NCBI GenBank assembly: GCA_964016885.1
Contig: OZ024744.1
Location: 31,682,001-31,746,000, forward strand
Direction of reading: 5' to 3'
DNA: 64,000 nt
Source: Eledone cirrhosa
Taxonomy: Eukaryota
Position 1 is the first letter of the stretch. Each line of letters opens with the position of its first letter. The notes under the pieces are model-generated. The model did no database searches, was not told the DNA's origin, and was given only the letters and a program-made list of their open reading frames with translations. Below are positions 2,019-61,366 of the stretch, piece by piece. Position numbers and translations under genes: made by a program.

Positions 2019-2280
2019 GAATTCTATAAGAACCAAACATCCATGATTTCAGCAAACAGGGGGAGTAGTTGGCTTTGATAAGCATCAATAAAGGCGAAAC
2101 AAGGCCTTGTCGGCTTTATCTCCCTCTGTTTGCTGAAAATTAAAGTAAGTGAATCTGTCACTACTCTAAAACAATAGCATAAGGTCTTCGAAATGCTTTT
2201 AATTAAGCATACAGTGTATTGCAAAATACACTATATATACATTCATATATATATAGCTATTTCAGAGCACCAATTCTAAT
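2019..2280 (+). mobile_element. Retrozyme-like non-autonomous element (family R1), partial monomer between (TA)n tracts
   Basis: Closely similar to 13041-13315; contains a hammerhead; no ORF. Confidence 0.75.
2047..2139 (+). ncRNA. Type I hammerhead ribozyme, U3-A8 core variant
   Basis: ggct TTGATAA gc..gc GAAA caaggccttg TC ggct; palindromic stem III; stem I extended by tttcagcaaacagggggag/ctccctctgtttgctgaaa. Confidence 0.8.
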
Positions 2281-10758: not shown

Positions 10759-11850
10759 TATATGAAAACGGAGAAAGAGACGATTATGAGGAAGAAAAAT
10801 ATATTCTTTTCCTTTTTTTGTCTATCTCTCTCTCTTTTTTCTGGGTTAGAAAATGATTAAAGCGAAATGTTTTACTTTGTGTGAAGTGTTAAGGTATTAG
10901 TTGATTTATTGATTATTTAACAATGGCATTTATTTATCTATTTATATATTTAATTATTGTCTATTACCGGTTTCTGCATTTATATGCATTATCAAATGAT
11001 AGTGAAATGTATTAGTGTGGTGTCGCACATGTTAAACAGAAGGTGAAGAAAGAATAATGTTATATACAAACAAGGTTTAAGAAGTGAAAAGGAAAAAGAA
11101 AAAGAAAAAAATCCATGCATAATGTGGAACGTAAAAATGAATGTGGAAGAAAAGTTAATGTTATTTACAAGCACAGTCATTGAAGTTAAGCAGTTCAAAA
11201 TGTGTTAATATCGCAAGAGTGCTTAGTTGACCCATGGTTCCGTGAAGGAGGCAAATGGTGGACTGTGGTTTGATATGATTTCCCTTTTTAGAGAGTTAAT
11301 ATGCAGGGGGAAGAAATTCTTGCTGGGTGATATTTAATTTATTTAAGAAAAAGGATTAGGTAGGGTGTGAGGGAGGTAACTCTTGTAAATGTTTGATGGT
11401 TTGTTGCAGTTTTAGATTGGTCCGAATTTTAGGGCATTGAGTACTGGTTGAAATTTATTAATGAAATGTGTTTCCTTATTTCTGCGTTGGATGAAAGTAG
11501 CGTTGTCTATGAATTTGTAAATATGGAACATTTTAAAGTTTGGAAGTTGGTTGAGAGCACAATTGGCGATATGTTCACTAAATGCAATCTTTCTGTATTC
11601 CTGTATTTTAATTTGTGATTTATGGACGGTCATACGTTGACGGAGGCTGATTTTTGTCTGTCCTATATAGTGCTCTTGACAACCTGAGCAAGTCAAAACA
11701 TAGATAAGGTTTTCAGATGCACATGTAAAGTAGTGTTTAAAATATTTCGTTTTAATCATTTTCTAACCCAGAAAAAAGAGAGAAACAAAAAAAGGAAAAG
11801 AATATATTTTTCTTCCTCATAATCGTCTCTTTCTCCCTGTTTTCATATAT
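10759..11850 (-). mobile_element. PLE 3' fragment (GIY-YIG) bounded by an inverted pLTR copy
   Basis: ORF 11412-11759 NLIYVLTCSGCQEHYIGQTKISLRQRMTVH; 10759-10868 is the inverse of 11744-11850. Confidence 0.85.
10960..10999 (-). ncRNA. Minimal hammerhead, U3-A8 core variant, in PLE 3' region
   Basis: Minus strand cat TTGATAA tgcat ataa atgca GAAA ccgg TA atag; 5-bp stem II; palindromic stem III; weak stem I. Confidence 0.65.
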
Positions 11851-12846: not shown

Positions 12847-12865
12847 TATATATATAAATATATAT

Positions 12866-13320
12866 ATAGTGTATTTTACAATATACTGTATGCTTAATTA
12901 AAAGCATTTCGAAGACCTTATGCTATTCTTTTAGAGTAGTGACAGTCTCACTTACTTTAAATTTTCAGCAAACCAAATCTAATTTTCAATATCTGCTTGA
13001 TCGGCAACCGCTCTGTATAATCACTTGCTGAGTATTACTAGAAATTCTATAAGAATCAAACATTCATGATTTTTCAGCAAACAGGTGGAGTACTTGGCTT
13101 TGATAAGTACCAATCAGTACGAAACATAGCTCTGTCGGCTTTATCTCCCCTTGTTTGCTGAAAATTTAAAGTAAGTGAGACTGTCACTACTCTAAAACAA
13201 TAGCATAAGGTCTTCGAAATGCTTTTAATTAAGCATACAGTGTATTGCAAAATACACTATATATACATTCATATATATATATATATATAGCTATTTCAGA
13301 GCGCCAATTCTAATTTTCAA
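12866..13320 (+). mobile_element. Retrozyme-like element R1: ~331-bp monomer (12973-13320) with an inverted partial copy at its 5' side (12866-12973)
   Basis: ccaa(a/t)tctaattttcaa at 12973 and 13304; internal (TA)n; hammerhead; no ORF. Confidence 0.8.
13071..13164 (+). ncRNA. Type I hammerhead ribozyme, U3-A8 core variant
   Basis: ggct TTGATAA gtac caatca gtac GAAA catagctctg TC ggct; extended stem I ttttcagcaaaca/tgtttgctgaaaa. Confidence 0.8.
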
Positions 13321-15086: not shown

Positions 15087-15624
15087 CCCACTCTCCTGAG
15101 CGTGAATTTAATAAACATTTGTCGTACTGCCTCTCTGTTCTGTCCCTGTTCAATTTTTCATTATATATATATATATATATACATACAAATAAAATTATCG
15201 AGAATCGAAACTCCGGCCCACGAAATAACGAAAAACAATCTCCGAAATGTGCGGCAAAGTGCTCAATGGTTCGGATGAACCCGAGCTACAACTAACGTTT
15301 AATACCAAACACACTGAGACGATGTTTAAACAATCATTCGCACAGCCAAAAAATACGATCAAGTAATTCGTGTCAAACAAATAAAAATATACATGATTGA
15401 AAAATTTACCCGGACCCCCTGGAAAGGTGGTAAAATCCAGCATTTGGGTTTCTGCGACTCCGAAATCAGGTACCGTGCGCCTACATAAAACATATCCGGC
15501 TTCTGGTAAGATGATGAACAAGGAATTCGCTTTTTCAACAGGCTTTTAGTTCAATAATACAGGGGAAGGCAATGAAAATGAAATGCAATTGCAACCTGTT
15601 GTTCTCCATAAAGAAAGAATGACA

Positions 15625-17999: not shown

Positions 18000-19078
18000 T
18001 GTAGAGAATAATAATAATCATATTAATAATAATAATGTCCGTTTACAGTTGTTTCGCTACTCCATATAATATTTCTGGATCAAATTACTATATATCATTA
18101 TTGATCTGGTTCAGTTGAAAATAATTAACATAATTAAAGATAGAACGGCTCATCGGAACTTTAAAGGAATATAAATTAAAATAAGGAAAGAATGTTACAT
18201 AATGTAATGTTCCATATATTGGTATTTAACTATCGTGTCCTGGGTGTATCAATTGTCTGCCATAATCAAGCAGTATTCTTCTGTCGAGGCTGCATTGTGT
18301 GAGATCTGCCTATGGGTAACAAGATGGCCGCCAATGGAATATTTACCTTACTAATTAGAGGGTGGTTTCAGGGGAAGTAACTCCTCGAGAGATTAGAAAT
18401 TGTGGGTAGTTTATAGTTAAGTGCTAAATTTTTAATTTTTTAATTGAGAGACAATGTAGGGGAGGTAACTTATAATTATCTAAGTTAGTTATAGCTATTT
18501 AACTTATTAGCTACAAGTAAAAATGGGGCTAGATGACTATGTTGGGTCAAATTTCTGTTGGCGAAGGAATTAGCCCTTCGATGTTGACAGCTAATAGTTA
18601 CCTCCGTTCTATCGTTAATCGGTAGAGGTCGTGATAGAGTTATGTAATATGCTTCGGTAATACAGAGATCACAAGATTTTCTTCGTCCATTGAACGGTTG
18701 GGCTCTAGCCAAGATATCCCATGTTAGTGAGTGTTCAATGTTGGTTAATTTAAGGTTTTTAATGAGCATAGCTAGAGATGTCGAACATCTTTTGTTAGGG
18801 TCTCGGAAGGAAAAAGAGTGCGCGTTATAGCGTACCTTAAAAGGGTTAGAGGTAGACCCGATATAGGAGCTGGTATTCGAAGCAGTTTTAACCGTGCACC
18901 TATAGACTATGTTGGGTATCAGGCAGTGTCCATTTAGTGGGCATGCATTAGGGTAACGGCAGTTGCAGTTGCTTCTGCGGTTAGTGAGAGTAGGGTAGTT
19001 TAACCTAAGCGGTTGGTCAGTGTTAGACGGATTAGATGGGGGAGGTGTGTTACTAGAGTAAGTAATCTCATTCTCCAC
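18000..19078 (-). mobile_element. PLE 3' fragment with Cys-rich linker + GIY-YIG (Neptune/Nematis-type) and 3' UTR
   Basis: ORF 18485-19078 CNCRYPNACPLNGHCL..NIVYRC..YIGSTSNPFKVRYNAH..CDLC. Confidence 0.85.
18041..18159 (-). ncRNA. Degenerate hammerhead with a long stem II insert
   Basis: Minus strand gtt CCGATGA gc..(~90 nt)..gc GAAA caactg TA aac. Confidence 0.5.
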
Positions 19079-19271
19079 AACACCTAACTAGCTAGCCACA
19101 TTCAGTAACCATCATAAACTAAGACAGTATAACTCCCACACCGCGGTACCACCACTCCTATCAAATACACCACGCCACTACACCAATAATTACTCTAGTA
19201 ACACACCTCTCCCATCTAAACATCGAGTGCTCACCCAGGTGAACCTACAGTAACACCACGTTACACTCCCT

Positions 19272-24209: not shown

Positions 24210-27988
<3,779 letters not shown>

Positions 27989-28199: not shown

Positions 28200-28547
28200 A
28201 CGAGTTAGGTAGGCTATGTGGGTATGGCGGAGGGCCGATTTAAGGAACGCTTCCTGAACCACCAGTCGACCTTTAGGTACCCGGACAGACGTTCATCCAC
28301 GAAACACGCGAGCCACGTATGGTCCCTCAAAGACTCAAGTATAGACTACTCCATTCAATGGAAAGCCATCACTAAGTCATGGCCATACGCAAGGGGCAAT
28401 CCGTCGTGCGGACTATGTATTGATGAACGAATAAATATTCTAAAGAGATTACGCAATAACGATTGCCTAAACTCAAGAGATGAATTCTTCACACGTTGTC
28501 CACACGTCTGGAAACACCTCTTACATAACTACAAAGCTCCGGATTGA
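28200..28547 (+). mobile_element. PLE GIY-YIG C-terminal fragment
   Basis: YVGMAEGRFKERFLNH..CGLCIDE..LNSRDEFFTRCPH. Confidence 0.8.
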
Positions 28548-31151
28548 ATTACAACAACATCCGAATTATATTTGCCAAAAATAGATCAAACTTAACTATG
28601 GATGACATTAATATTATCACGCACGCTAGACAAACACTACTGGAATTTCAGAAGGAATACTGGACCAGAAATACATATAGTAATCTCTTTGATATTACTA
28701 TGGGTTCTAGTGATTCTGCCCAAATTACCGATCTTGTGGGCCCCTTTCTTCTATTTAACATTAATTCATCTTTTCCCTACCTTAAAGGTGGCTTATATCG
28801 TCTTCTTCTTTCCACTAACCTTAGCCTATCAGAAATTGAAAAAATAAAAAACTTATTAGAACTTTCCTCAAAGACTATTACAATCTCACTATTACATTTG
28901 AAAACACCAGTAAAATAGTCAATTTACTAGATATAACTTTAGACTTATCTACGGGTATCTACCAACCTTACCATAAACCTAACGAAAACTTACATTACAT
29001 ACACTCACAATCCAATCACCCTAGATCTATCCTTAAAAACCTAGCATATAATATCTCACTCAGAGTCTCTAACCTTTCATCTAACCAGGATGTATTCGAT
29101 AAAAACGCGCCCTTTTATAACGAAGCTTTAGCTAGAAGCGGCCACAAAAACAAATTAGTCTATATACCTTGCACCAATAATACTTCAAACATACAACCCA
29201 ATATTACCAACAAACACCAAATGAAAAACCCACACCTAAATGCCACTCATGCTACACCCAAAAATACAAACCTAAAACTTAATTTCTCTACCTCTTCTCA
29301 CATAAAATATAATTACATTCAAAAAACCATTCATCCTAATACTCCAATATATGTTAACATTACTAACAAAATTCCTAATAATCAGACGAAAACACCTAAA
29401 TCAGTTAATCTAACTAAACTTATATATAATAAATTCACTAATAGTAACTCTCTTAGTAAACATCCTGATACATCGTATAAATATAAAAAACAATATCGAA
29501 ACCGTAATAGACGGGTTACTTGGTATAATGCTCCATTTAATCTACAAATTAAAGATAATATCCCTAAAAAATGTTTTACTATCCTTGAGAAAAACTTCCC
29601 GCCAAACCATAAATACCATCAAATTTTAAATAGATCAACTGTCAAATTTTCCTACTTCACTACCAAAAATATACAACAAAATATAAGTGCGTACAACGCA
29701 TATAAATGTAAAAACCCCACGAATATACCACCAACACATCAAACCAACCATAATACTAAAATAAACCGCAACAAACCACCATCTCCTTCACCTATAACAA
29801 GTCGAGTAAATTCCACACCAAATTTGACTAACTCCCCTGATATAATATTCACGAATGGTTGTAACTGTAGAATCAAAAGAAATTGCCCATTAAAGGAAAA
29901 TTGTCTTATTAATAACATAGTCTATAAATGTAAAATTAGCACTAAGGACTCCACTTATTCATATGTAGGAGCTACGTCTAACCAATTTAAAGTAAGATTT
30001 AATACCCACAAACATATTTTTTATAATGCTGCATTAGCTAATACAACATCCTTGGCTGAAACAATTAATAATTATAGAAAGAAGAATATCGATTACAACC
30101 TGAGCTGGAGTGTGCTCAAAAGGGCCACCCCTTATCAAAATAACAGATACGAGTGTATATTATGCTCCCAGGAACTTTTTGAAATCATGAAATCTAAGGA
30201 TATCCTATTAAATAAGCGACAGGAATTAATTATATCTTGCAATCATAGAATTAGAAGAACCTTCAAATATTATAAACCTAATTAATATACACCTTACACT
30301 TATATTTTACATATTATTATAATTAGTTTTTTTAAATTTAGTTAACCTATAATTAGTACTTTACTACAGAGAACTTCATAATTTTATTTCCCTCTTACAG
30401 CTCTCTTTTCCTAAAATTAATACCTAAAAGTATACCTATAAATTAATTTAATTTCATGTTATGAATCTAGATTCCTTATAGTTTATATAAGATTGGTATT
30501 TCTCACTACTACCCTTATCCCAAAATTTTACTTTCCTTCGTTTTTAACAACACTCTTTAATAACATTTAATTCTTAGTTATCACATTCATATAAATTAAT
30601 ATAAATTTATCCCTATAAGTATACCTATCAATCAATTTAATTTCTTGTTATAGATCTAGATCCTTGTGGTTTAAATACGATTGGTATTTCTCACTAATAC
30701 CCTCACCCTAAAATTTTATTTTCCTTCGTTTTTAACATTATTCTTTAATAACATCAAATGTTCGTGTACTCTTCACTGGCTTGACCTCTTTTCACCCCCA
30801 AAGTATTCTTTTCATTCAAAGTATTCTTTCCATTCAAAACATAAGTCTGCACTCCTCTACCCCTAAATTAAATTTCTACTACTACTATTCTATCAACTTG
30901 ACCTCTAACTACTTTTCTATTGGTCAATTCAAAATCTGTTCCCAAACAGACCTTTTATATTAAATCTTTGTTGATTTTTTTCAATAAACAAATCTCATCA
31001 TTTCTGAAGACAGCATATATATATTCCCTCAGATAGTTTATAATATTTTTACATAGATCTATATGATATACATACCAACACACATATACATCCTAGAAAC
31101 GATAGTAAAATGATGAAATGTTTAATATAAGGAAGTTGTTCTTTGTTTTTA

Positions 31152-32330: not shown

Positions 32331-33775
32331 TTAGAAGGCCAAGACTAAACAGAAAGAATGAATGGAATAACAACAACACCCAAACAAACAACACTGACCT
32401 AAGAGAAGTATAAATAAATAAATATATACATACACAAGCACAATAACAACAAACACATATAAACACACACTAGTAAAGATAGAACACAGTCACCCAATCA
32501 CGAACACACATCAAACAAAACACTATACACACACACAAACGTATGCACAAAGAAGACAAAATAAAATAAACAAACAAACAAATAAATAAATAAATATATA
32601 GACAGACTAAATAAAAATGGCGTAGACATACAATGTAACGGGAGGAAACAATAGCACCACTGACGATGTTGCAGATGTGCAACGAAAGAACTTTGATAAA
32701 CTATATATATGTGTTTGTGTCTATATTGTATCTGTATTATTTTTGACCGTCAGTAGGCCAATGGCAACATTGAGGACCGAATAAATTAAATTAGATTACC
32801 GATATAAAAGACACAAGCGAAAAGCGAAAACCAACCAAACTGGGTGTGTTCTGTTATTAATTCTGGCAATATTACACAAATATGACCCTGCCCAAGTATA
32901 ACAATATTTGTTTCGACACACGATTTCATATAAAAAACCTCGCAAAACTAATTTATCGCCGTTATGGCATTAGCTTGTGCCAAGCTGAAAGGTTATTGAA
33001 AGACATTGTTTTCTGTTATATAAAAACTACAATAACAACAGAACAAATCCGCTTCTTAAAACACTGTGTTTCCTCCAAAATATACACAACAAACATATCA
33101 AAACAAGTAAATAATTTATTATTGAACAAAGCACAAGCTGAACGACTAAAACACACAATAACAGTTAATATGAAAAGAACAACATACACAAAAGTCAACG
33201 AACTTTACAGACAGAAACGCATTAACGGTAAGGAAGTCCAAAATCTCACCACACCAAACGAAAGGGATGACTTCATGAGCGTCATCCGACGCGAAACGAA
33301 ATACGCCCGAAACGAATGCTGTAGGCATTTCAATAAGAAATTAGAATGGATGAATAAGAAAAAACTACAAGAAAGGAAAATAGAATATTCTCAAAAATAC
33401 CCAGATAACATCAACAATATCCGTATGACTGATGTAGAACTACCTGAAGAATTTACCAATGACCACACAGTAAATATTTATGGGAACACTTTAATCAGTG
33501 AACAAGAACAACAAATCCTGCAGCTACCACCAAAATTTGCCATCTACAAAAAGATTAACCCTATTGAGTGCAAAACGGAGCTGGAAAAGTGTTTCACAAA
33601 AATACGTTGGAGTGCAAAAGTAAACAACAACAACAACAATAATAACGGTAGTAGTAATATAAACAATAACTCTGAGTATAGAAATAACAGCCATAACAAT
33701 AACAATAGCAGGAGAGTGAGAAATAGTAATAATGGTAATAATACTAACGATGGACAGAACAACAACAACAACCAC

Positions 33776-33812
<37 letters not shown>

Positions 33813-36579
33813 GAAACATTAACCACAGACACAGCAGCAGCGACCACAGTAGTAATAACGGTAACAATACGAACAACAACAACAATAACCACAGTGGTAA
33901 TAATGGAAATAATACATGTAGCAACATTAATGAAAGACAACAAAAACAAGAAACATAATAAAAGTAACAACCACAATGGTAGAAATAGCAGTAACAACAA
34001 GAATAACGGTGAAGTAAACAACAATACATCTAGCAATCATAACAATAATAATAATGCTAATGATAGGAACAACAACAACCACCAAGATAACAATAATAGC
34101 AACACACACAACTATGACGATAGATATAATGACAACCCCTTAGAGAAACTATTTTTCAACCCAGCTGACAAAACATATAAGATGGGTAATATCTATCCTA
34201 CGAGGTTACCCTTTAATAAAAGAGTTTGCATACCACAACAAATAGATGACGAGACAGAGGCACAGTTCACCATAGCTAGAAATAAGATTAGACAAATAGT
34301 AGACCGGTATACTAAGAGACAGAGCAGACCAGAGGCCCAACAACTTGGGAGGAAACCTGTAGAAGGCTTGGTTAGCCTCAAGCAGCGCACAAGGGATGGT
34401 GAGGTAGTATGTCTACCCACGGATAAGTCTGGTAGGATGTCAATAGATAGCATGCCGAACTACATCAAGGCTATGCAACCCCACATCACCAACACGAGCG
34501 AAATTGCACAGCAAACACATGATGTGAGAGAGAAAATCCTCAACGCTCACATGATGATGTGGACTGACATCCTAAAGCCAAGCAGACGCACTGCCAACAA
34601 CTTCCAGGCGTCTAACAATGGCATACCACCCTTGTATGGGCTCCGCAAAGACCACAAGACAGTCGACGACCCGACAACAGGACCACCAACAAGACCCGTA
34701 TGCGGAGCTAATATAGCTAGCAACTACAGGATCTCCTACTTACTCTCAATGGTTATACGCCCCATAATCAAGATGTCCCCAGATGTATGTGACAGTACAG
34801 AGGGCCTCCTCAGCAGAATCAGTGAGTGCAACAAAAACAGGAACCTATCCAACTGCATAATAGGCAGCATGGATGTGGTATCACTGTACCCATCCATTAA
34901 CATTGATTTTGCTGTGGAAAAATGTGTGGAGTTGATCATTGAGAGTGAGGTGGAGTTCTGCGACGTCGACACAGACGAACTGGGCCTCCTACTTAGACTT
35001 ACTTACGACACTGACTACCTAGACAGCCATGACCTTAGACGTTTCTGCCCTAATAGACCCATAAGAGGTAGACCCCCACCATAACCTCAATAGCAAAAAA
35101 GACTCCCATGGGAAGGTGGATTGGGTGGACCAAAGCTATACGGACCCCCCAAAACAATGATCAGGTAAGAAAAATGGTCGCACATGCAATAGGGGCTAGT
35201 ATCAAAACTACCCTAAAGGGCCTCATATTCAAGTTCAACGAGAAGATCTACACCCAAAATGAGGGAGCAGCCATTGGCGTCAGCATAGCTGGTGATGTTG
35301 CCAAACTTTTCATGGTATGGTGGGAAAGGAGACTTAAAGATCTCCTTAATGAGAGCTCCATAGACCTCATCATGTACTCTCGTCACGTAGACGATATCAA
35401 TATAGTTATAAGAACATCCCCACTAGAGAGCACTAACAAGTTTGATTTAGAACGTAGCACAATGGAAAGCATCCAGCAGATAGCTAATTCCATACACCAG
35501 AGTATAACTGTAATTATCGACTTCCCTTCCAAACACCCTAACAATAGACTGCCTGTATTAGACAGGGAACTCTGGATTAACACTATAGACGAGAGAGCCC
35601 AAATTCTCCACTCACACTATGCTAAACCCATGGATACTCAAAAACACAGCAATGTCCAGTAGTGCTAAGTTTAATATTCTGATCGCAGATTTGGTACGAG
35701 TGATGAAGAATGTGTCCCGCATGTGCGACCCAACAGAAATGGAAAGACACATCCAACACTTCATCAACCGCATGCAGTTCTCTGGCTACAACCAAAGAGA
35801 CAGAGTCAGAGTATACGAAGGAGCCATGGAGAAGTATAGAACTGGACATGAAAGGAATTTGCCCATTATATAGGAGCAAATCATCGAATAGCTTAGATAG
35901 GGCTAGACATAAGATAGAGAAAGCCACCTCATGGTACAACCAGAGATACCAGAGTGTCATGTTTGTGGACGCTACCCCTGGAGGGAAATTAGCTAACCAG
36001 TGTAGAAAGGCCCTGAGAAAGACCCACTTAAAGATTAAGGTGGTAGAAAAGCCAGGAACCACCATAAAATCCCTGATCAGCAAAACCTACCCCTTTAAGA
36101 AAACCCACTGTACTAATAGGAAATGTATCATATGTAAGGTAAACCCCCGGATAAACTGTAAAACTAGAAACGTAGTCTATAGCATAAGATGTACAGAGGG
36201 TACTTGCAGAAACATGACAACAACATACATAGGTGAGACAGCTCGTAGCATAGGTGAAAGGATAGACCAACACTGGGTGGAACTAAAAGGACGAAAAAAC
36301 GGGTCAGTACTATACGAACATGCCACACAACAACACGACGGTAACATAGACAACATAGAAATTAGAATAATATCTAAACATAGAAATGACCCAACAGATA
36401 GGCAAATCATAGAGGCCAGTGAAATAGAATTTAGAAGGCCAAGACTAAACAGAAAGAATGAATGGAATAACAACAACACCCAAACAAACAACACTGACCT
36501 AAGAGAAGTATAAATAAATAAATAAATACATACACAAGCACAATAACAACAAACACATATAAACACACACTAGTAAAGA
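32331..36579 (+). mobile_element. Near full-length PLE with upstream partial tandem (pLTR); frameshifted
   Basis: ORFs 32882-36513: LPTDKSGR, MDVVSLYPSI, GAAIGVSIAGDVA, SRHVDD, CTNRKCIIC, YIGETARSIGERIDQH; 32331-32479 directly repeats 36431-36579. Confidence 0.93.
32658..32695 (+). ncRNA. Hammerhead-like motif in pLTR (copy at ~42470-42507)
   Basis: ca CTGACGA t gttgca gatg tgcaac GAAA gaac TT tg; homologous to 12213-12255 with compensatory stem II changes. Confidence 0.65.
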
Positions 36580-36643
36580 GCGTGAAATTAAATTAATAAA
36601 CCTTTGTTCGTACTGCCTCTCTGTTTTGTTCCTGTTCAATTTT

Positions 36644-36741
<98 letters not shown>

Positions 36742-38854: not shown

Positions 38855-38910
38855 ACTGCTATATATATTTCGATGATAGCCATTGAATGTCTTTGACCTC
38901 ATCAAGCAGT
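38855..38910 (-). ncRNA. Type I hammerhead with C3>U change
   Basis: Minus strand actgc TTGATGA g..c GAAA tatata TA gcagt. Confidence 0.62.
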
Positions 38911-39509: not shown

Positions 39510-39512
<3 letters not shown>

Positions 39513-39945
39513 CTTCCCTTGCTTTTATCGAGAATCTAATTGTAATACGTGACGTATTCTATTCTATAGCGATTAGGTCTTCAAAATGTTTATTATAAAC
39601 ATACAGAATATTTTCGAATATTCTATGTCTATATTCACATATATATCGCTATTTCAGAGCATTTATTCCAATTTCTAATTTCTGCCGGACCGGCAACCGC
39701 TCTTTCAAACCAGTTCCTGTACACAGCTAAGTATTCTATAAGTCTCTAGCTGTGTCATTCTCGATAAAAGCACTGGATATGTAGTCCTGAAGATTTCTAA
39801 TAAGAATGAAACGCGTAGATTACTTCCCTTGCTTTTATCGAGAATCTAATTGTAATACGTGACGTATTCTATTCTATAGCGATTAGGTCTTCAAAATGTT
39901 TATTATAAACATACAGAATATTTTCGAATATTCTATGTCTATATT

Positions 39946-39955
<10 letters not shown>
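39510..39955 (+). mobile_element. Retrozyme-like element R2: 310-bp monomer present as ~1.4 tandem units
   Basis: tacttcccttgcttttatcgagaat at 39511 and 39821 (offset 310), repeat ~135 bp long; hammerhead at the junction; no ORF. Confidence 0.85.
39757..39845 (+). ncRNA. Type I hammerhead ribozyme with extended stem I
   Basis: gtagtc CTGAAGA tttc taataa gaat GAAA cgcg TA gattac; attctcgataaaagca/tgcttttatcgagaat 16-bp extension. Confidence 0.85.
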
Positions 39956-39978
<23 letters not shown>

Positions 39979-43639: not shown

Positions 43640-44275
43640 TTACTATTACTAGTAGATCTAACGCATATCGTGACACACAGAACTTTGACCTTAAGGAGAC
43701 ATATGGATTTAATACCTACAAATCTCCCCAACCGAACCCTTTGCTCTCACCTTTTCAGACCGACCTTTTCAACCTAGTCAAGGGAGTGAAATTCAAACCT
43801 AGACATAATCGATTCCAACACCAACTCCATAGCAAAATATCAGTACAGAAGCACCAACGATAAACTTGTGCATTCGGACAAAACTGGAAATCTGTATTTC
43901 GCCAACCCTGACAGTTTCTATTCTCTAATTAGTAGTAGCTTGACCTCCACTTATAAAAAGTCCAACCCTTCCATGATCCGCGACGTAAACATGGATGGAC
44001 AAAATATTACCTCCGGCCTCGGTGTATCCTACCGTAAGGAACTTATCGATTCTCGGACCCCTTATTTCACCCTGAAGGATTATAAATCCGACTTCGACTG
44101 CGATACATGCATTAGGCTTATAAACCCGACAAAGTCAGATATAGGGAAGATCAATAAAAATTTTGAATCGCGTTATACCCAAAGTCAAGCAAAACGCGAG
44201 GGTTAACCTTTGGATTAGCACTCAGGAAGTCATCTCTTGGTTTAAGAATATCGAGGAAAAAAGGAATACCACTTT
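43640..44275 (+). mobile_element. Nematis-type PLE RT N-terminal fragment
   Basis: HSDKTGNLY..PYFTLKDYKSDF..IRLINPTKSDIGKI. Confidence 0.8.
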
Positions 44276-45245: not shown

Positions 45246-48200
45246 GGCGACCGTTGTGGTCAGTGTCCGATAATCGGACGTGTGTAATTACGGCTTACAT
45301 GAAGGCAACATACCATATATTGGAAAAAGGTTGAGCTACATTACGCGGTAAGATTACATACAATAATTCTACATAAGTGTTTGAACTGTAAGTGTGTTGT
45401 AAAACACCTATTTATATGAACGATACATACACTTATGATATATGAACGATACATATACTTTAACATATAAATGCAACGTTGTTATATTACATTTATAAAG
45501 AAATATAAAAGTAACGTTTTCGATTCAGAAACAAAAATATAAGTGTTTGAACTGTGAATGTTGTGAATATGTTGTAGAACACCTATTTATATGAATGATA
45601 CATAAACTTTAACATATAAATACAGCGTTGTTATATTATATTACATTCGTAAAGGAATATACTAAGTAACGGTTCTTTTTGTTCTCGATTCAAACGATTC
45701 AAGAACAACGTTTAAAACACAGTTGTAGAATTAAAAACTAACTGAAAAGAAATATTACCCAAGCTGTGAATAACTTTAAATTTGATTCTGACAGAACTTT
45801 GTCGTAACTTTTAAAGAAGATCATCGACTATTTAAAAAAAAATAAATACAAAATATTAGTGAATAGACGAACTCATCATGGCAAAAAGTACAAGTCTCCT
45901 TCGACCAAATCGCAATTACAACCGTTGTATACAGTGGAGCTACGAGCTTAACAAAGAATTATATGAAGCATACAAACAATCTGAACCCCAAAAGTTCGGT
46001 TTTATGCAAAGGCTAACAACTTTATGGAACTCCAAACACCCAGAATTAGACTTTTCTCCAAAGCATCTAAATGAACAGGCAAAACGTATCATTAGATGTA
46101 AATTGATACATCTAACGGAATCGAGTGATACTACAAATACAGCCCTTGTAGACAACCACCCCACCTCCACTGACAGACAAAGAGAATGGCCGGCTAAATC
46201 TAACAGTGAACAGCTCACCAACAATTTTGCTGAAATCCATCCCACTTCCACTGAAGAACAGCGAGAAAGGTCAGCTGACTCTAGTAGTAAGTGTCACCAC
46301 ATCAACAACGAGGCTGCAATTCATGACTCTACTGAACAAACAGAGCACCAAAAACTTGTGGGCACCCTACAAGTGATATGGAACGATATGTTTCAAGAGA
46401 TACACAGCCTTAATGTGAGTGACAGACCATACAACACTAGAGTCAGTAAAGAACCCACTAAATTGGAATTGGAAGCGGTGAACGAAATAGCTGGCAATTA
46501 TCTGAAGGCTATACGATCTAAAGGTGTAGAAACGACATTTGAAACGCTCAATGTTTTGTTATATGTTTCAGCTGTCACATTGCTATCATATAACACACAT
46601 CTAAAACCACGCAATCAAGATACAAACAGAAAGCCTGAACCAGCGTGGATGCGAAATTTAAAAACCAAAATTTTGTCCCTGAGACGAAGTATCTCACACA
46701 TCGCAGTCGTTATGAAATGCAACATAGAGAGAAACTTCACACGACACCAGGAAGACCTAAAGAAAAAGTTAGAGAGACGATTTGGAGATACCAAATTTAA
46801 AACTTTGAACTCCAAATTACACCAGTTGAAACAACAACTCACAGCTACAACAGAAAGACTAAAATATAAGTCAACAGCCCATAAACGACAAGTGCTAAAT
46901 AGATTGTTTGCCAGAGATCCTAAATCAGTTTATCGCAGCTTCGGTGGCAAAAGCTCAATCCCTGTAAACGACACCCCTTCAAAAGAACAGGTTGAGAACT
47001 ACTGGAGATCTGTATGGGAAACGGATGACGGATTCAACAGACAAGCTAATTGGCTAAAACAACTGGAACAGGACTACTGCCAACATGTCCAGACAAAACA
47101 ATATGACATAGATGGGTCAATACTGGAAACAGCTCTACAGAAAATGTCGAATAGGAAATCGCCAGGCCCAGACCTCATTACAGGATACTGGTTGAAGAAT
47201 TTCACTTTCTATCGGCAAGATCTCATACGGCTGTTTACAGAAACCATTAAGGGCACACAAGAACTGCCCAGATGGTTATCAACTGCCACTACTCTCCTCA
47301 TTCCCAAAAATAGCCAAACCACCCTTGCTAAAAATTACCGCCCAATTGCCTGCCAAAACATCATGTATAAATTATATACTGGGTGCCTTAACCTGTTCTT
47401 ACAGGATCACTGTGCTACCAACAACATCATAACACCTGAGCAAGCTGGTGGAAAGAGGGAGGTGTGGGGTTGCATAGATCACCTACTAACTAACAAAATG
47501 ATTCAGGAAAAAACAACAAAGAATCGCAGAAACATGACTGTCGTGTGGCTGGACTATCAAAAAGCATTTGATAGTGTACCTCATGGGTGGATTATTAAGG
47601 CTTTACAGTTAGCTAAAGTCCCACAACCATTAGTAGCTGCTGTTGAACGCCTGACCAAGAACTGGTACACCAATTTGATCCTTAGAGGTGAGAAGGAGCA
47701 GGTTAAGACTGATAGGATACATTACCAGAAGGGCATCTTTCAGGGTGATAGCTTGTCAGTACTACTCTTCGTTCTCTCACTGAATCCACTATCTTACCTA
47801 CTCAGGAAACAAGGTGGACAAAGAAGTGGGCCCAGAAGTATCTCCCATCTTTTCTTTGTTGATGACCTGAAGTTGTATGGGCCAAATATCAATGACATCA
47901 ATAAACAATTGGACCTCATTACACAATTTTCAACCGACATCAAAATGAAATTTGGTGAGTCCAAGTGTGCATATTTGGCAGTAAAACGTGGAAGAGCTGT
48001 GCCCTCCTCTAGAAATCTAGATATGAACGGCCTGACAATACAACCTCTGCAGTCAGGTGACAACTACAGATATCTTGGACAGGATGAGAATGTCAGATAT
48101 GATGGACCCATAAATAAGGAGAGAACCAGAACTGAATACCTCAGAAGAGTAAAAAAAATATGGTCATCAGAACTGTCAGCATACAACAAATACATTGCCC

Positions 48201-49470
48201 ACAATACCTATGCTGTGCCAATTCTAACGCCAACATTTGGCCTACTGAACTGGTCATTGCAAGAACTAAGTGAGATGGATGTTAGAACTCGAAAACTTCT
48301 CAGTGTTACTGGGAACTTTAACATCAATGGTGATGTGGATAGGCTATACTTCTCACGCAAGGAAGGTGGCCGGGGTCTAAAATCAATATTAACAACATAT
48401 GAGACCCGGATAGTAACACTGAAGCAACACCTTCAACAGAGGAAAAAGGTTGGCGACCATCTTGCTCAGGTTTATGAGCATGAAAAAAGAAATATCATTA
48501 GAATAGCGACTGATCTGGAGGAGAGATATGGAATAAAGCCTGATATAAATCTCTCACCCAGAGAAATCGGAAGATCCTATTCAATGTTCAAACAAGAAAA
48601 AAAAATTGACCAATTTACAGAGAAAGTTGTGCATGGATACTTGAGGCGTAAAACACAGACCATAGAGGGGATAAACCACTCAAAAAGCCTGGCATGGAGT
48701 TCCGACAAGTTTATGACATCACACCTTGAGGGATATCTCTATGCAATACAGGAACAAGAACTCCCTACCAAATATCTGCTGCACAAAAGAGGAGGGCCAG
48801 CAGCTGACAATAAATGTAGGCTATGTAAAACAAAGATCGAGGATGTAAGCCACATTGTTGCCAGCTGCGAAAGAATGTCATCTCGCTACTACCTCCCCAT
48901 GAGACACGATGGGATAGCTAGAACTATCTGGAACGCACTTCGGAAAACAAAATTAACAACAAACGAGGAAGAATATATTGAGACAGATGGCACTAAGGAA
49001 TACTGGTGGAACCTGAAAATAAAAACTGCCACCAAATTAAAGCACAACCGGCCTGATATTGTAGTTTGGGACCACACACTGAAAACGTGTTCTGTTGTGG
49101 AGATCAGCTGCCCACTTGATGTAAACGTTGTCAGAAAAATACAGGAGAAGGAGAACATCTACGGACCATTGATGAGGAGCTTACAAATCCAGTATCCAAG
49201 ATACACCTTTAGCTTCATACCCATCATTATTGGTGCTACGGGTTATATACCAACCCGCTTGGACCAAAGTATGACCGAACTTGGATTTGCGGACAAAAAG
49301 CGCAGCTCCCTAATTCATAGTCTACAAATGGCTGCGATAGCTGGCACCTTCAAAATATGCAAAACATTCTTGCGATTCAAGGGATGACAATTTCTTTTCT
49401 TTTACAACCTTGCCACCAGGAAGGTGGCCGGTCAAAAAAATATACTCGAAATTAAGAGAAAGAGAAAACA
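45246..49470 (+). mobile_element. Apparently full-length R4/Dong-type (RLE) non-LTR retrotransposon in (TACA)n
   Basis: Single intact ORF; ~630-bp 5' UTR with internal repeats; (TACA)n on both flanks. Confidence 0.92.
45878..49387 (+). CDS. Reverse transcriptase with CCHC zinc knuckle and restriction-like endonuclease (1169 aa)
   Basis: KSPGPD, NYRPIAC, WLDYQKAFDSVPH, GIFQGDSLS, LFFVDDLKLY, YRYLG, CRLCKTKIEDVSHIVASC, RHD, RPDIVVWD..EISCP..K. Confidence 0.95.
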   Translation: MAKSTSLLRPNRNYNRCIQWSYELNKELYEAYKQSEPQKFGFMQRLTTLWNSKHPELDFSPKHLNEQAKRIIRCKLIHLTESSDTTNTALVDNHPTSTDRQREWPAKSNSEQLTNNFAEIHPTSTEEQRERSADSSSKCHHINNEAAIHDSTEQTEHQKLVGTLQVIWNDMFQEIHSLNVSDRPYNTRVSKEPTKLELEAVNEIAGNYLKAIRSKGVETTFETLNVLLYVSAVTLLSYNTHLKPRNQDTNRKPEPAWMRNLKTKILSLRRSISHIAVVMKCNIERNFTRHQEDLKKKLERRFGDTKFKTLNSKLHQLKQQLTATTERLKYKSTAHKRQVLNRLFARDPKSVYRSFGGKSSIPVNDTPSKEQVENYWRSVWETDDGFNRQANWLKQLEQDYCQHVQTKQYDIDGSILETALQKMSNRKSPGPDLITGYWLKNFTFYRQDLIRLFTETIKGTQELPRWLSTATTLLIPKNSQTTLAKNYRPIACQNIMYKLYTGCLNLFLQDHCATNNIITPEQAGGKREVWGCIDHLLTNKMIQEKTTKNRRNMTVVWLDYQKAFDSVPHGWIIKALQLAKVPQPLVAAVERLTKNWYTNLILRGEKEQVKTDRIHYQKGIFQGDSLSVLLFVLSLNPLSYLLRKQGGQRSGPRSISHLFFVDDLKLYGPNINDINKQLDLITQFSTDIKMKFGESKCAYLAVKRGRAVPSSRNLDMNGLTIQPLQSGDNYRYLGQDENVRYDGPINKERTRTEYLRRVKKIWSSELSAYNKYIAHNTYAVPILTPTFGLLNWSLQELSEMDVRTRKLLSVTGNFNINGDVDRLYFSRKEGGRGLKSILTTYETRIVTLKQHLQQRKKVGDHLAQVYEHEKRNIIRIATDLEERYGIKPDINLSPREIGRSYSMFKQEKKIDQFTEKVVHGYLRRKTQTIEGINHSKSLAWSSDKFMTSHLEGYLYAIQEQELPTKYLLHKRGGPAADNKCRLCKTKIEDVSHIVASCERMSSRYYLPMRHDGIARTIWNALRKTKLTTNEEEYIETDGTKEYWWNLKIKTATKLKHNRPDIVVWDHTLKTCSVVEISCPLDVNVVRKIQEKENIYGPLMRSLQIQYPRYTFSFIPIIIGATGYIPTRLDQSMTELGFADKKRSSLIHSLQMAAIAGTFKICKTFLRFKG

Positions 49471-50316: not shown

Positions 50317-50887
50317 GTGCGTGCGTGTGTGCGTGCGTGTGTGTGTATATATATATATTTATATATATACAATCCTGCCTGTAAAGCTGCACCACAGCTA
50401 ACCAACTTTTCTGTTTACTGACTCCTGCTTACAACCTTTCATACTCTGCCTGTAAATCATGTACTTCCACTGCTTGTGAATTGATGTATCTATGTTTGGT
50501 TTGTTTTTTGATCATGCTGAGCAACACCCTCATTCATTTCTTGCTCTCCTCTCTCAACCTCCTTATGATCTATTGCACCATTTATGTGATAAACTTTTGA
50601 GGTAATTTTTATGATGTAATTTTTTGTGACATTATATGTATCATGTATTGTGTACCTCTCTACTTGTCCTTCTTCCTTGTTCTGGTGACTAGGCTCGATG
50701 GAGCCTGCAACCTTTGATATACTTTTGTTTATAGGGTCTGGTGATTCCTGCCCTAGGGTATGGATGAAACACTGTTAGCAAATAAAACAGTGTGTTTCTA
50801 AGCACTCTTTGTCTATTCCTAAACTTATATATATATATACATATATATATATCGTACTGCCTCTCTGTTTTGGTCCCGTTCCATTTT

Positions 50888-50959
<72 letters not shown>

Positions 50960-51474
50960 GCAAAAGTTCTATTTAAATTGTTGGGATACAACAAGCAAAT
51001 ATTTTTATAACTGATATAAAGCACTCGACAAATATTTGGAGTAGATATACGATATTAATAAATGGAAACTATATTTATAAAACCATATTTATTTCATTAT
51101 ATATATTTCAAGGATACCAAGTTAAATTATGGTATGCCTTCATCTGACAAAATACAATATATAACAGTTTTATAAATAGACATTGACGTTCCCTTTTAAA
51201 AAGTGACCGATGCTTTTGGAGGCCATCAGGATAGTGGTTTGTTTACTTTAGTAAGTCATAGTGTTAAGAGTAAGTAAAAAGATGGAGAGAGAGAGAAACG
51301 TGGAGAAAAGAAAGGGAGAGATAGATAAAGAAAAAGAAGAAAGGAAAAAGAAAAGAGAACAGAGGAAAATAACTTAAAATAACTTAAAATTACTTAAAAT
51401 TATGGAAAGAGAGAAGTGAGGTTATCGATTGGTTTAAAGAAATTAAATATAACTATAATAATAAGTTTATTCAG

Positions 51475-52932
51475 TTGGATATTGCTAACTACTACTCATC
51501 TATCACTCCTAATCTACTGAATAAGGCACTAACTTACGCATTTAAACATACAGACCTAACTAGCAATGAAATGCACATTATATTATCGGCACGGAAAACA
51601 TTAATAGAATTTAATAACCAACTCTGGACTAGGGCAGATAGAAATAATAATTTCGATATAACTATGGGATCTTCAGACTCAGCTCAGGTAACGGACCTTG
51701 TGGGCCTATTTATAATTAATTCTCTACATAGAAAAATACCAGGTGTAACCGGAGGCTTATATCGTGACGACATGCTTTTACTTATAGAAAATAATAGCTG
51801 TGAACTAAATAGAAAAAGAAAACAAATTATACAATTTTTTAATTACCTTAATCTAAAAGTAGAAATAGAGAATAACCATAAAATAGTCAATTTTCTAGAT
51901 GTAACACTAAATCCCAACACATGTCTTCATTATCCATTTTACAAACTAAATGAGAACTTAAATTATGTCAATTTTAACTCTAATCACCCCAGATCCGTTA
52001 AAAATACTATAGTGAACTCTGTTCAAGAACGAATTTCAAGAATTTCATCTAATAAGAATATATTTGATGAAAAAGCGCATTATTACAACGAAGCGTTAGG
52101 TAGAGCTGGGTATAGAAATAAAATTAAATACATCGATAATAATAATATACAAAATAACCAAAATAATAACAACCTTAATTATGGTAACAATTTCAACAAC
52201 TATAATAGAAAATATTACAATAACTCCGAAAGCCGAAAAAGAAATAGAACTAGGAATATATTATGGTTCGCTCCTCCTTTCTCACTAAATATTAAAACCC
52301 CTATTGCTAAACTATTCTTTAAAGCTCTTGACAAACGGTTCCCTAGAACACATAAATATTACTCAATTTTTAATGGACATACTATAAAATTAACTTATTC
52401 TTCCACCAAAAATTTTGCGCAAAATATTAATAGAATTAATAATAGAAATTTAAAACCTAACCAAAATACCAATAATAGCCCAAGCAATATTCAATCGAAT
52501 AACTGTAACTGTAGAAATAAATCCAACTGTCCGTTAAATAACAACTGCTTAGCTAAAAATGTAGTTTATAATTGTAATGTTAAAACTAATTTAAATTCAT
52601 TTAACTATGTCGGTTCTACCTCTACAGAATTTAAATCCCGCTTCAATAATCATAACAATTCTTTTACAGATCCAAACAAAAAATCTTCAACTTCGCTATC
52701 TAGCCTATTATGGGACCTAAAACGAGATAATGTTGAATATTCGCTTATTTGGAATATTATTTCAAAAGCTACTCCTTTTAATTCCTCTTCAGAAAATTGT
52801 GACCTTTGTATGGAGGAAATATTTTTTATATTAAAGACCTACAATTCCCTTAATTTAAGGAATAATTTATTCAGTTGCTGCAGACATAGATTGAACTCAA
52901 CGTTTAAATATAAATATAAATTTAAAATGTAG
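51475..52932 (+). CDS. PLE polyprotein, open C-terminal part (RT core, Cys linker, GIY-YIG)
   Basis: DIANYYSSI, FDITMGSSDSAQVTDLVG, GLYRDD, VNFLDVTL, CNCRNKSNCPLNNNCL, VVYNC..YVGST..KSRFNNH; N-terminus missing. Confidence 0.88.
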   Translation: MDIANYYSSITPNLLNKALTYAFKHTDLTSNEMHIILSARKTLIEFNNQLWTRADRNNNFDITMGSSDSAQVTDLVGLFIINSLHRKIPGVTGGLYRDDMLLLIENNSCELNRKRKQIIQFFNYLNLKVEIENNHKIVNFLDVTLNPNTCLHYPFYKLNENLNYVNFNSNHPRSVKNTIVNSVQERISRISSNKNIFDEKAHYYNEALGRAGYRNKIKYIDNNNIQNNQNNNNLNYGNNFNNYNRKYYNNSESRKRNRTRNILWFAPPFSLNIKTPIAKLFFKALDKRFPRTHKYYSIFNGHTIKLTYSSTKNFAQNINRINNRNLKPNQNTNNSPSNIQSNNCNCRNKSNCPLNNNCLAKNVVYNCNVKTNLNSFNYVGSTSTEFKSRFNNHNNSFTDPNKKSSTSLSSLLWDLKRDNVEYSLIWNIISKATPFNSSSENCDLCMEEIFFILKTYNSLNLRNNLFSCCRHRLNSTFKYKYKFKM

Positions 52933-54264
52933 TTTAATTAATTAAGTAATTTAGTTAATATATGAAACCTGTCGATAAATCATTAGATTCCTTCACTTTT
53001 TTTATTTTATTTTTTTTTATTTTTATTCTGATAGCTTCTCATAATTTTCAAAAGTTTGTCCTTTCAATATCTTGATTAAAATATAGGTAAGATAAATTTC
53101 TATACTAAATATATTAAACATATTATTTTAACTTAAAATATTCTATAATATTTTGGGATATTTTAGTATTTTGATATTTGTAGAATTCGTTTGCGTTTTA
53201 AGTTATATTGATATAATTATATTTCCAAAATATAATCCTTTTGTATTTTATATACTCAATTGTACTATGTTATATATTGATGTATACTTATGTCTATATA
53301 CGGCTTATGTATCTATATATGTGTATTGACATACATATACATGTGTTATATGCTTTTTTGTGATTATATGTCTGTCTGTATATATGCATGAGTGACGCGT
53401 GTATACCAATTGGGTGAAGATGCACACACATATCTATTCATGTATAGCTAAGAATTATGGGTGGGAATGTACAGGCTTACACATGCAGTTTTTGATTGCA
53501 GATATGCATAACTTAACAGCCATAGATGCATGAAAGTTAATCCTATATATTTTATATATATATACTAAATTTTTTTAATTAATAACACAAGGAATGTATA
53601 GCAATAAATAAAGAATCACTTATGCTTTGTATGTATATATTATATGCGGGAGTAGATATAGTGTGTATTTTCTGAGTGAGTGTGTATATATATATATTTA
53701 TGTACCTTTGCCTATGTGTATGTGATATACGATAGGTAATTTCTCTAGCAATATATATATTTTATAATGTTTAAATTCCAATTTTTAATATATTGATCTC
53801 AATTTTTAAACTAAATATCTAATCATAATTAAGCAATGTGTAATTTCTCATATTATATATCTATATTCCATTCATGAATATTAATATTTCTAATTTTATT
53901 TATTCATTTCATCTCAATTGTTAACTCAACTTAATATGACATAACTTAAGGTTTTCGTTCTCTCCCCTCCCCCCCCTCTCTCTATCTCTATATATCTCTC
54001 TCTTGAGTTTTTTCTCTGTCTGATGGTTTGATATCTCCCCGTTATTTTCCTCTGTTCTCTTTTCTTTTTGCTTTCTTCTTTTTCTTTATCTATCTCTCCC
54101 TTTCTTTTCTCCACGTTTCTCTCTCTCTCCCTCCATCGGTTTACTTACTCTTAACACTATGACTTACTAAAGTAAACAAACCACTATCCTGATGGCCTCC
54201 AAAAGCAACGGTCACTTTTTAAAAGGGCACGTCAATGTCTATTTATAAAACTGTTATATATTGT

Positions 54265-54327
54265 ATTTTGTCTGATGAAGGCATACCATAATTTAACTTG
54301 GTATCCTTGAAATATATATAATGAAAT
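54265..54327 (+). ncRNA. Type I hammerhead in pLTR (inverted copy ~51091-51153 has CAGATGA)
   Basis: attttgt CTGATGA agg c atacca..tggtat c ctt GAAA tatata TA atgaaat. Confidence 0.82.
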
Positions 54328-54367
54328 AAATATGGTTTTATAAATATAGTTTCCATTTATTAATATC

Positions 54368-54413
<46 letters not shown>

Positions 54414-54514
54414 GATATTAATAAATGGAAACTATATTTATAAAACCATATTTATTTCATTATATATATTTCAAGGATACTAAGTTATGTATATATATAT
54501 ATATATGTATATAT

Positions 54515-60099: not shown

Positions 60100-61262
60100 T
60101 TTTTATTATTATTTTTTTATTTTGCTTTATGTTCGTATGAAATATCACCAAGTCACAACCAGTGACCTCAAGAGACAACAAGGTCCGCTATGTTCAAGAA
60201 AGAACATACATACACACACATGTATCTTTAGGTGTTTAGACTTCTGATGTACTTATATTGACAGAATCTTCCTTGGTATATGGACATTTCCCATTAGTAC
60301 TATCTTTTGTATTTCTACTATACGTGGTCTTTCTGGGATTTGGGATAAGTAATCATTAGGCCCATTAGGTATCATTCATAGAGCGCCTACAACCACTGGT
60401 ATTGTTTTAGTTCTCAATTTCCACATTTTTCCAATTTCTATCTCCAGGTCCTTATACTTGCTCAATTTTTCAAATATTTTTATAGATACATTCTTGTCTA
60501 TTGGAACGAACATATCAATTAGCAGGCATACCCTCTTTTTAAAGTCCTTCAGTATTTTATCAGGTCTACTTGCATCTATTTTTCGGTCTGTTTGGATGCT
60601 AAAGTTCCACAAGATTGGGATGTGATCTTTTTCAAGTACGGGAGGTGGTTGATGCTCCCACCAATTCTTTTCATGGGCAGGTCAAAATGCTGACACATTA
60701 TCCAATGTATGTATTGTGCAGCTCTGTCGTGCCTGTTTAGGTATTCGGTTGGAGCTATATAGGACTGCACATTGAAATTATATGATCAATGGTCTCTGGT
60801 TGATTTTTACATACACGGCATAATGGGTTGCGTCCATTTTTCATGATGTTGGCTAGATAATTTTTGTTGGCAGACACTGATCTTGTGCTGATATAATCAA
60901 TCCTTCAGTCTCCGATTTCAGTCCAGAGGATGCCAACCACTGATGGGTTAAAGTTTTGTCACCATCAGGATTGTTAGCTCTTTCTGGGTATTTTCCATAC
61001 AGAGGCTTTTCTTGCCATTTCTTAGCCAGTTTCTGTAGCAGTTCTTTCTTTGCAGTTACTTTTACCTGCTTTGCTTTTTCTGTGTTTTCCATTTCAGCAG
61101 TAAATGGAACTTCTGAAATTTGTAATTCATTACTGTATCTTTGTGCATCTTTTGTAATGGAGAATGATCTTTTGATGCTTTCATGTTTCAAAACGAGTTT
61201 GATCATCCAATCATGTGATTCCCTTAGATATGTAGATAATCCAATTGTTGCAGTTTTCAAAC
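60100..61262 (-). mobile_element. 3' fragment of a second RLE (R4-like) non-LTR family, frameshifted
   Basis: LKSETEGLIISAQDQ, YLNRHDRAAQYIHW, ASRPDKIL..LLIDMFVP..KLSKYKDLEIEI..IPVVVGAL. Confidence 0.85.
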
Positions 61263-61366
61263 AATATCTAACTGCTGTTTAGTTCTACACCAATATAGTT
61301 ACTAGAAACTGCGCATCGAATGCTCACTCTGGTGAACCTACACTAACTGGATGTTACAATCCCCCG

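Follow-up and report, generated by a model that had tools for sequence, protein, structure and literature searches.

How did a 262-nt piece of a hammerhead-bearing repeat come to lie at positions 2019–2280 of the 64-kb stretch of DNA analysed here (the window), in a (TA)n-containing microsatellite and between TA/TG microsatellites? The question reaches beyond the locus, as the family to which the piece belongs (called R1) bears on which enzyme moves animal retrozymes and on whether its template is circular or a linear multimer. Penelope-like elements (PLEs) have been proposed as retrozyme movers on the grounds of shared ribozymes, co-occurrence and the phylogeny of pseudo-LTRs (pLTRs) (bioRxiv 10.64898/2026.07.22.740005; PMC7229834). 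R1 is a family of retrozyme size that carries scars specific to PLE insertion (a tail, an inverted 5' piece and a (TA)n target) and lies beside Hydra-type ORFs. We consider it likely that at 2019–2280 a non-autonomous, retrozyme-like mini-element of the Penelope type inserted with loss of its 5' part and was dead on arrival. The U3-A8 core, the palindromic stem III and the kinship of retrozymes with Penelope are already published and add little; what goes beyond routine is the presence of PLE insertion scars on a retrozyme-sized family together with the concentration of change in stems II and III. In the literature searched on cephalopod hammerheads, retrozymes and Penelope the R1 family is not described. 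The coordinates of all features are collected in Table 1.

Table 1. Position and strand of the R1 copy, its parts, its relatives and other elements of the window.
Feature	Position	Strand	Remarks
R1 copy, 5'-truncated	2019–2280	+	262 nt of a unit of about 331 nt
Type I hammerhead domain	2047–2138	+	
Distal stem I	2047–2065/2120–2138	+	19/19 pairs, one G-U
Stem I internal loop	2066–2070/2116–2119	+	5x4
Proximal stem I	2071–2074/2112–2115	+	4 bp, two G-U
Catalytic core, positions 3–9	2075–2081	+	TTGATAA, U3-A8 pair
Stem II	2082–2095	+	G-C, C-G, A-G mismatch, U-A; 6-nt loop
Core strand	2096–2099	+	GAAA
Palindromic stem III	2099–2110	+	A15.1 to U16.1, 12 nt
C17 of the GUC triplet	2111	+	predicted cleavage between 2111 and 2112
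Twin hairpins	2193–2210, 2213–2232	+	directly 5' of the TA tract; second with GNRA-type loop
Internal TA-rich tract	2232–2255	+	end point of 2 of 4 family segments
3' extension past the TA tract	2256–2280	+	25 nt, start of the next unit head to tail
13-kb R1 copy	12973–13320	+	348 nt: 331-nt unit and 17-nt terminal overlap (16/17 identical); U3-A8 hammerhead, predicted cleavage after 13136; tail 13290–13320 (31 nt)
Inverted 5'-truncated R1 piece adjoining the 13-kb copy	12860–12973	−	lower coordinate approximate; ends in the TA tract; 103/106 identical to the 13-kb copy
Sibling family array	39510–39957	+	448 nt, 310-nt period, 1.44 units; predicted cleavage after 39817
Hydra-type element	51042–54483		514-aa ORF piece 51388–52932, hammerhead-bearing end 54122–54376, inverted copy 51042–51296; second inverted piece after a TA run at 54416
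Other PLE-like RT/GIY-YIG ORF pieces	18488–19087, 539–1162, 11412–11762	−	
Other PLE-like RT/GIY-YIG ORF pieces	28209–30285, 32861–36513, 43790–44206	+	
Common sequence of about 40 nt after a TA tract	50850–50890, 36600–36647, near 15100		
Eight more hammerhead-like loci	12081(−)/12217(+), 14866(+), 36841(−), 38241(+), 38905(−), 54272(+), 59833(−)		other repeat families; U3-G8 core at 38905
Perfect 263-nt inverted repeat	11884–12146/12152–12414		5-nt spacer, one hammerhead per arm
Non-LTR retrotransposon ORF, open	45863–49387	+	1174 aa; RVT_1 E 6e-25, zf-RVT
Fragments related to the 1174-aa ORF	near 20674; 60376–61278		
Broken Helitron-like Rep/helicase region	24577–27114	+	PIF1 E 5e-32 at 26119–26490

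The hammerhead, its folding and its changes

Positions 2020–2280 align to 13043–13314 with 89% identity, gaps included (E 1e-99), and differ from them by 19 substitutions in 261 aligned columns, which bears out the preliminary description of the locus as a second, diverged copy of R1. The structural traits named there also held on analysis: U3 and A8 both lie within the core heptamer, caaggccttg is self-complementary and forms together with A15.1 and U16.1 a 12-nt palindrome, and past the internal loop of stem I follows a long distal helix in which every position is paired. Three helices surround the core and the ends lie in stem I, as defines a type I hammerhead. Stem II forms three of its four pairs, and stem III offers 4 bp with a GGCC loop in the monomer and 12 bp between two molecules. 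The core is identical at 13100–13106 in the 13-kb copy and contains C3-G8 in the sibling family (39787–39793), so that the 3-8 pair covaries within one lineage. We regard the lineage as one of hammerheads because the core is kept in three homologues while the helices change. The U3-A8 variant occurs naturally and is active in vitro (PMC3088659), and about 1,300 such variants are known from PLE hammerheads of Schistosoma mansoni (PMC4209133).

A helix-aware descriptor of the U3-A8 form has two matches in the window, which are the two R1 copies, as compared with 0.05 matches per shuffle (100 block shuffles). The bare core motif, with the helices left out, lacks specificity (15 matches versus 5.6 expected), the R1 cores making up 2 of the 15. 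The sibling hammerhead escapes both descriptor scans, as its stem II has a U-U at the base; it was recognised by eye and then checked with Rfam. For all three homologues the best ribozyme match in Rfam is Hammerhead_HH9 (RF02275, clan CL00010) with 21.4, 17.0 and 17.0 bits, the first value belonging to 2019–2280 (E 0.0018, over a 111-nt stretch). With a gathering score of 52, membership of 2019–2280 in HH9 is rejected; indeed, nothing in the whole 64-kb window matches Rfam at gathering score. HH9 resembles R1 in the internal loop and distal helix of stem I, the 4-bp stem II and the 6-nt loop, whereas R1 differs from it by a proximal stem I of 4 rather than 6 bp and by the U3-A8 core. Rfam miRNA matches at E-value level were dismissed as TA-repeat artefacts. 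No hammerhead core was found on the minus strand of 2019–2280, and an exact 23-nt R1 pattern had no match in a collection of bacterial and archaeal genomes.

The hammerhead region of 2019–2280 folds beyond chance (z −6.84; no shuffle out of 200 reached its stability). The best fold of this copy (−45.7 kcal/mol) lies 12 kcal/mol below the active-like one (−33.6 kcal/mol), pairs the core with the 5' strand of stem II and buries the GUC site; the corresponding values for the best and the active fold of the 13-kb copy are −32.5 and −30.1 kcal/mol, all of them nearest-neighbour energies, which ignore tertiary contacts. Because it is a solo copy and is predicted to misfold, 2019–2280 probably has a weak or inactive ribozyme, and as modelled it is a poorer candidate for activity than the 13-kb copy. 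That the inactive fold is a conserved switch was rejected, as the 13-kb copy retains only 3 of the 5 pairs of the key helix and has a gap of 2.4 kcal/mol. The modelled active dimer exceeds two monomers in stability in the 13-kb copy (−70.1 versus −65.0 kcal/mol) and in the sibling (−65.9 versus −62.6 kcal/mol); for 2019–2280, by contrast, the active dimer (−87.5 kcal/mol) is weaker than two misfolded monomers (−91.4 kcal/mol) and than the best dimer (−103.9 kcal/mol).

The earlier proposal that the palindromic stem III permits dimeric hammerheads is supported at the level of the family: the stem III centres of the three homologous ribozymes are GGCC, AGCT and CGCG, each of them self-complementary. 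To judge from these sequences, a stem III that changes and yet remains palindromic favours cleavage as dimers in the family. The compensated change of the pair beside the central GC would point to pairing between molecules, because in a monomer this pair would have to close an impossible 2-nt loop. Kinetically, strand exchange of the 19-bp local helix argues against a double hammerhead, and stem III of 2019–2280, with 4 bp and a tetraloop, could close as a monomer. It should be noted that a palindromic stem III is ordinary here, because the palindrome from A15.1 to U16.1 is perfect in 7 of 10 hammerhead loci examined in the window (one mismatch in the other three) and because the feature, together with dimer cleavage, has been described before (PMC4209133; the review PMC6765202; axolotl retrozymes in PMC7229834).

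Between the two R1 copies neither the core (13 positions) nor proximal stem I has changed. Ten of the 19 substitutions fall into the 29 columns of stems II and III (six into stem II alone) and nine into the other 232 (Fisher p 3e-6; scan control p 0.0002). In four of the ten pairs of stems II and III both partners differ between the copies (p 0.002; 0.008 with the core columns left out), three of these four staying paired and one breaking; the covariation tool's own shuffle control, which had two rows only, is not significant (63/500). The stem III duplex of 2019–2280 has −19.5 kcal/mol with itself and −6.3 kcal/mol with the 13-kb variant, which barely prefers itself (−7.3 kcal/mol). Stems II and III might be a fast-changing identity module of an otherwise stable mini-element, such that each subfamily cuts only its own kind, while the twin hairpins and the TA tract are a constant signal read by a Hydra-clade RT, but we would put little trust in this idea. 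In this reading, exchange or rapid replacement of the palindrome by the subfamilies would amount to self-recognition among co-resident retrozymes. The evidence comes from two copies only, and the observed pattern of change could equally be the outcome of prolonged purifying selection or of a single template switch.

Relatives, ends and template

Over 298 aligned columns the sibling family shares 64% identity with R1 (E 3e-18), and its hammerhead lies at the same position of the unit, with a 6-bp proximal stem I, 16+3 distal pairs in different letters and ACGCGT as stem III. The sibling array begins 2 nt downstream of its own cleavage site, contains an uncut hammerhead junction and ends in the TA tract. 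The first 137 nt are identical between the two repeats, by which the array is apparently young, and it may be the window's best candidate for an active member. Beyond the four known segments nhmmer with the family profile found no further one in the 64-kb window at E <0.05. Both units are non-coding (longest ATG ORF 31 aa in R1, read head to tail, and 30 aa in the sibling) and have a GC content of 33–34%. Two other identities considered for R1 were given up: for Pol III transcription there is no B-box match and there are internal T4–T5 runs, and in a MITE the inverted repeat would not be internal.

Counted from the cleavage site, the four segments have their 5' ends at −93 (2019–2280), −164, +17 and +3. 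Two of the 3' ends, those of the inverted piece and of the sibling, lie in the TA tract and two lie 25 and 31 nt past it. That four 3' ends fall into a 35–55-nt arc of a 330-nt circle has a chance of 0.005–0.02, or of 0.03–0.08 when counted as three independent insertions, these statistics resting on three insertions with four ends. The 3' ends in the TA tract could also have arisen later via deletion between TA runs. All three insertions sit in (TA)n. At 2019–2280 it is present on both flanks and hides any target-site duplication of more than 4 bp, and TA microhomology at both junctions leaves each end uncertain by 1–3 nt.

The preliminary description had given the copy endpoints different from those of the 13-kb copy, which is correct for the 5' ends (about 70 nt apart) but hardly for the 3' ends (only 6 nt apart). 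The read-through of the TA tract that it had reported is real; since the 13-kb copy does likewise, however, this feature does not distinguish 2019–2280. Its conclusion from the varied endpoints, a circular or multimeric template, has to be divided. The multimer is supported by the 17-nt overlap at 13 kb and the 1.44 units of the sibling, and it is from these two that the head-to-tail order is known, 2019–2280 being shorter than one unit. The circle does not follow from the endpoints, because 2019–2280 is less than one unit, the 5' ends vary as truncation predicts and all four 3' ends cluster.

PLE insertions have been described as partial tandems that lack part of their 5' end and are often accompanied by an inverted, likewise 5'-truncated copy next to them and by a tail of 30–40 bp (PMC8557442). 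With a purified PLE, reverse transcription was shown to begin at two internal sites close to each other, the tail being the stretch that separates them (Frangieh et al., PMC11167929). By analogy, the end pattern of R1 matches this insertion structure and the extension at 2256–2280 may be interpreted as a Penelope tail; its 25 nt are below the quoted length, the 31 nt at 13 kb are within it, and two segments have no tail.

Alternatively, monomers could be ligated into a circle of about 331 nt, on which the RT would produce permuted, more-than-unit copies. We regard this as unlikely, albeit with an appreciable chance of being right. More-than-unit segments are indeed present at 13 kb (348 of 331 nt) and 39.5 kb (448 of 310 nt), but a linear multimer accounts for the same overlaps. 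Unit-length slices folded as circles have z-scores of −4.7 and −4.6, in which the hammerhead hairpin itself is included. Circles have been seen on northern blots for coral, mussel and axolotl retrozymes of similar size (PMC7229834), but the anole PLE used mainly uncut RNA as substrate (PMC11167929). A circle would be compatible with fixed RT start sites; against it, the 3' ends are unpermuted, and the sibling array begins 2 nt from the cleavage site, for which the chance is about 2% per segment (a simple proportion from one case). Start and uncut junction of this array suit a linear multimer better than a circle, again as one case.

Candidate helper elements and a possible course of insertion

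The twin hairpins would be the best candidate for a recognition signal of a helper protein because of their position directly 5' of the TA tract. Their fold has a z of −4.5 in 2019–2280 and of −2.4 in the sibling, in which 3 of 14 pairs are changed on both sides; one pair breaks in the inverted piece. The loop of the second hairpin is GCAA or GTAA in R1 and TTCG (UUCG) in the sibling.

Three of nine PLE-like ORFs examined contain a CxCX5C linker: 18488–19087 (−), 28840–30282 and 51388–52929. For the last of these (514 aa) 53 homologues were found among 6439 candidates, including relatives from Argonauta, Hydra, a bryozoan and Octopus, the last with 46% and 42% identity over no more than about half of the protein. 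Of the 22 homologues with at least 650 aa, 21 have CxCX5C and 19 have DKT. CxCX5C and DKT together mark the Hydra clade. Every family of this clade has (TA)n as its target and contains hammerheads; a preference for microsatellites is also known from Naiad and Neptune (PMC8557442). The helper of R1 is probably a Hydra-clade element, which we infer only, because no R1-like end is joined to the PLE ORFs of the window: blastn and nhmmer revealed within the 64 kb neither an autonomous element with an R1-like terminal repeat nor similarity between the ends of R1 and those of an autonomous PLE. Pfam, with which 14 of the 16 ORFs first chosen were scanned, named five (GIY-YIG in two, RVT_1, PIF1 and low-complexity noise in one each) and missed those of Hydra type. 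An annotation of Octopus vulgaris lists 31 recently active Penelope-like families and in its main text does not deal with ribozymes (PMC13282606).

Several other repeats are present (Table 1). Most of the eight further hammerhead-like loci are followed within 50–220 nt by a TA tract, and the perfect 263-nt inverted repeat probably reflects the inverted 5' arrangement left by a PLE that inserted recently.

The course of events that we propose starts from a master locus with units in head-to-tail order, the order seen at 13 kb and in the sibling, which would be transcribed into a multimeric RNA. Type I hammerheads would cut the multimer, most likely as double hammerheads formed via the palindromic stem III. 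The RT/GIY-YIG protein of an autonomous PLE, most likely of the Hydra clade, would then bind near the twin hairpins and nick genomic (TA)n, and reverse transcription would start within the RNA, either at the TA tract or 25–31 nt past it, as the observed 3' ends suggest. Synthesis would stop early, in 2019–2280 at 93 nt upstream of the cleavage site, and would sometimes leave an inverted piece such as that at 13 kb.

Known systems and remaining alternatives

With a unit of 331 nt, a GC content of 33% (below 50%), one type I hammerhead and no LTR-type coding, R1 has the properties of a retrozyme unit. The metazoan non-LTR retrozymes (PMC7229834; Li et al. 2026) likewise are non-coding, low-GC units of 150–450 bp with one type I hammerhead, are arranged head to tail as in the R1 family and co-exist with PLEs. 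In axolotl retrozymes a minimal helix III is capped by a palindromic tetraloop, or helix II has a U-U at its base (PMC7229834); both features are found in the 39.5-kb sibling. R1 differs from metazoan retrozymes in its U3-A8 core with a 12-nt palindrome. Its insertions also have a tail of PLE type and an inverted 5' piece and target (TA)n, none of which is described for metazoan retrozymes in the text consulted of the two sources (PMC7229834; Li et al. 2026). For an active retrozyme two hammerheads are demanded (Li et al. 2026). Because every window locus has one complete hammerhead, and none has two in tandem or an array containing two, R1 is named retrozyme-like and not an active retrozyme. 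Animal retrozymes have been derived from PLE ends, and only one of nine tested dimers cleaved (bioRxiv 10.64898/2026.07.22.740005).

The PLE hammerheads of S. mansoni are, like those of R1, of type I with a palindromic helix III, dimer architecture and high variability within the genome. Unlike the minimal hammerheads of the same source (PMC4209133), R1 has a 4-bp helix II with a 6-nt loop, no bulge at 9–10.1, a long distal helix I and no linked ORF. With the Hydra-clade PLEs and the non-autonomous Chlamys elements (PMC8557442) R1 has in common the insertion in (TA)n, a hammerhead near the end, the partial tandem, the inverted 5' copy and the tail, but in contrast to Hydra-clade PLEs it encodes nothing, and its sequence does not resemble the Hydra-type ends of the window. 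Non-autonomous head-to-tail PLEs have been described in Chlamydomonas (PMC8557442), and at the family level the partial tandem, the 5' truncation with an inverted copy and the lack of an RT/EN ORF are those of a non-autonomous PLE.

It is improbable that 2019–2280 is instead the solo pLTR plus tail of an ORF-bearing PLE, the 13-kb mini-unit being merely a derivative, although the 262-nt copy taken alone resembles a pLTR with tail, most PLE hammerheads are solo motifs from truncated elements (PMC4209133), and stems II and III, which differ from those of the 13-kb copy, may derive from another master. The tails at 13 kb and in the sibling re-enter the hammerhead within about 100–130 nt and without an ORF, two families that are 64% identical have this short period in common, and the window contains no ORF-linked copy.

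Non-autonomous rolling-circle DNA elements associated with Helitrons or Helentrons also have inverted repeats, twin hairpins, an internal microsatellite and an inverted partial copy, and the PIF1 helicase remnant at 26119–26490 would fit such an origin. That the hairpins of R1 act in single-stranded DNA and that its likeness to a hammerhead is incidental is nevertheless very improbable: between the R1 copies all 13 core positions have stayed the same while the helices next to them turn over, the sibling shows covariation of the 3-8 pair, the inverted repeat lies inside the unit and not at its termini, and owing to G-U pairs the + strand folds better as RNA (−45.7 versus −34.9 kcal/mol for the other strand of 2019–2280, only about 1 kcal/mol in the other two). 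Segmental duplication, gene conversion or an assembly artefact, which a microsatellite-rich window with one perfect 263-nt inverted repeat might bring to mind, can hardly be the explanation, as the copies differ by structure-preserving changes and the 1-kb flanks of the three loci, to which the preliminary description had pointed as a check, have no similarity at matching distance (one shared 62-nt stretch belongs to another repeat with 14 window matches, and there is one 25-nt match), by which duplication is excluded within the window.

Some small signals in and near the proposed dead-on-arrival mini-element may be added. An abundant short dispersed repeat at 2620–2681 recurs at 13 other places (14 matches) and is probably a piece of a SINE. 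Just after the hammerhead a small hairpin (2143–2168 and, in the sibling, 39540–39562, both +) has z-scores of −2.3 and −0.5 and is not convincing. The TA tract is flanked by a GTAAGT resembling a splice donor, which follows the hammerhead, and by a TTTCAG resembling an acceptor, which lies in the tail (2145–2150 and 2260–2265; 13171 and 13294; 39652, all +). By chance either hexamer would occur about 0.08 times in a copy, the acceptor but not the exact donor is retained in the sibling, and as splice-like signals they are weak. In Penelope and Chlamys-3 an intron spans the pLTR boundary (PMC8557442).
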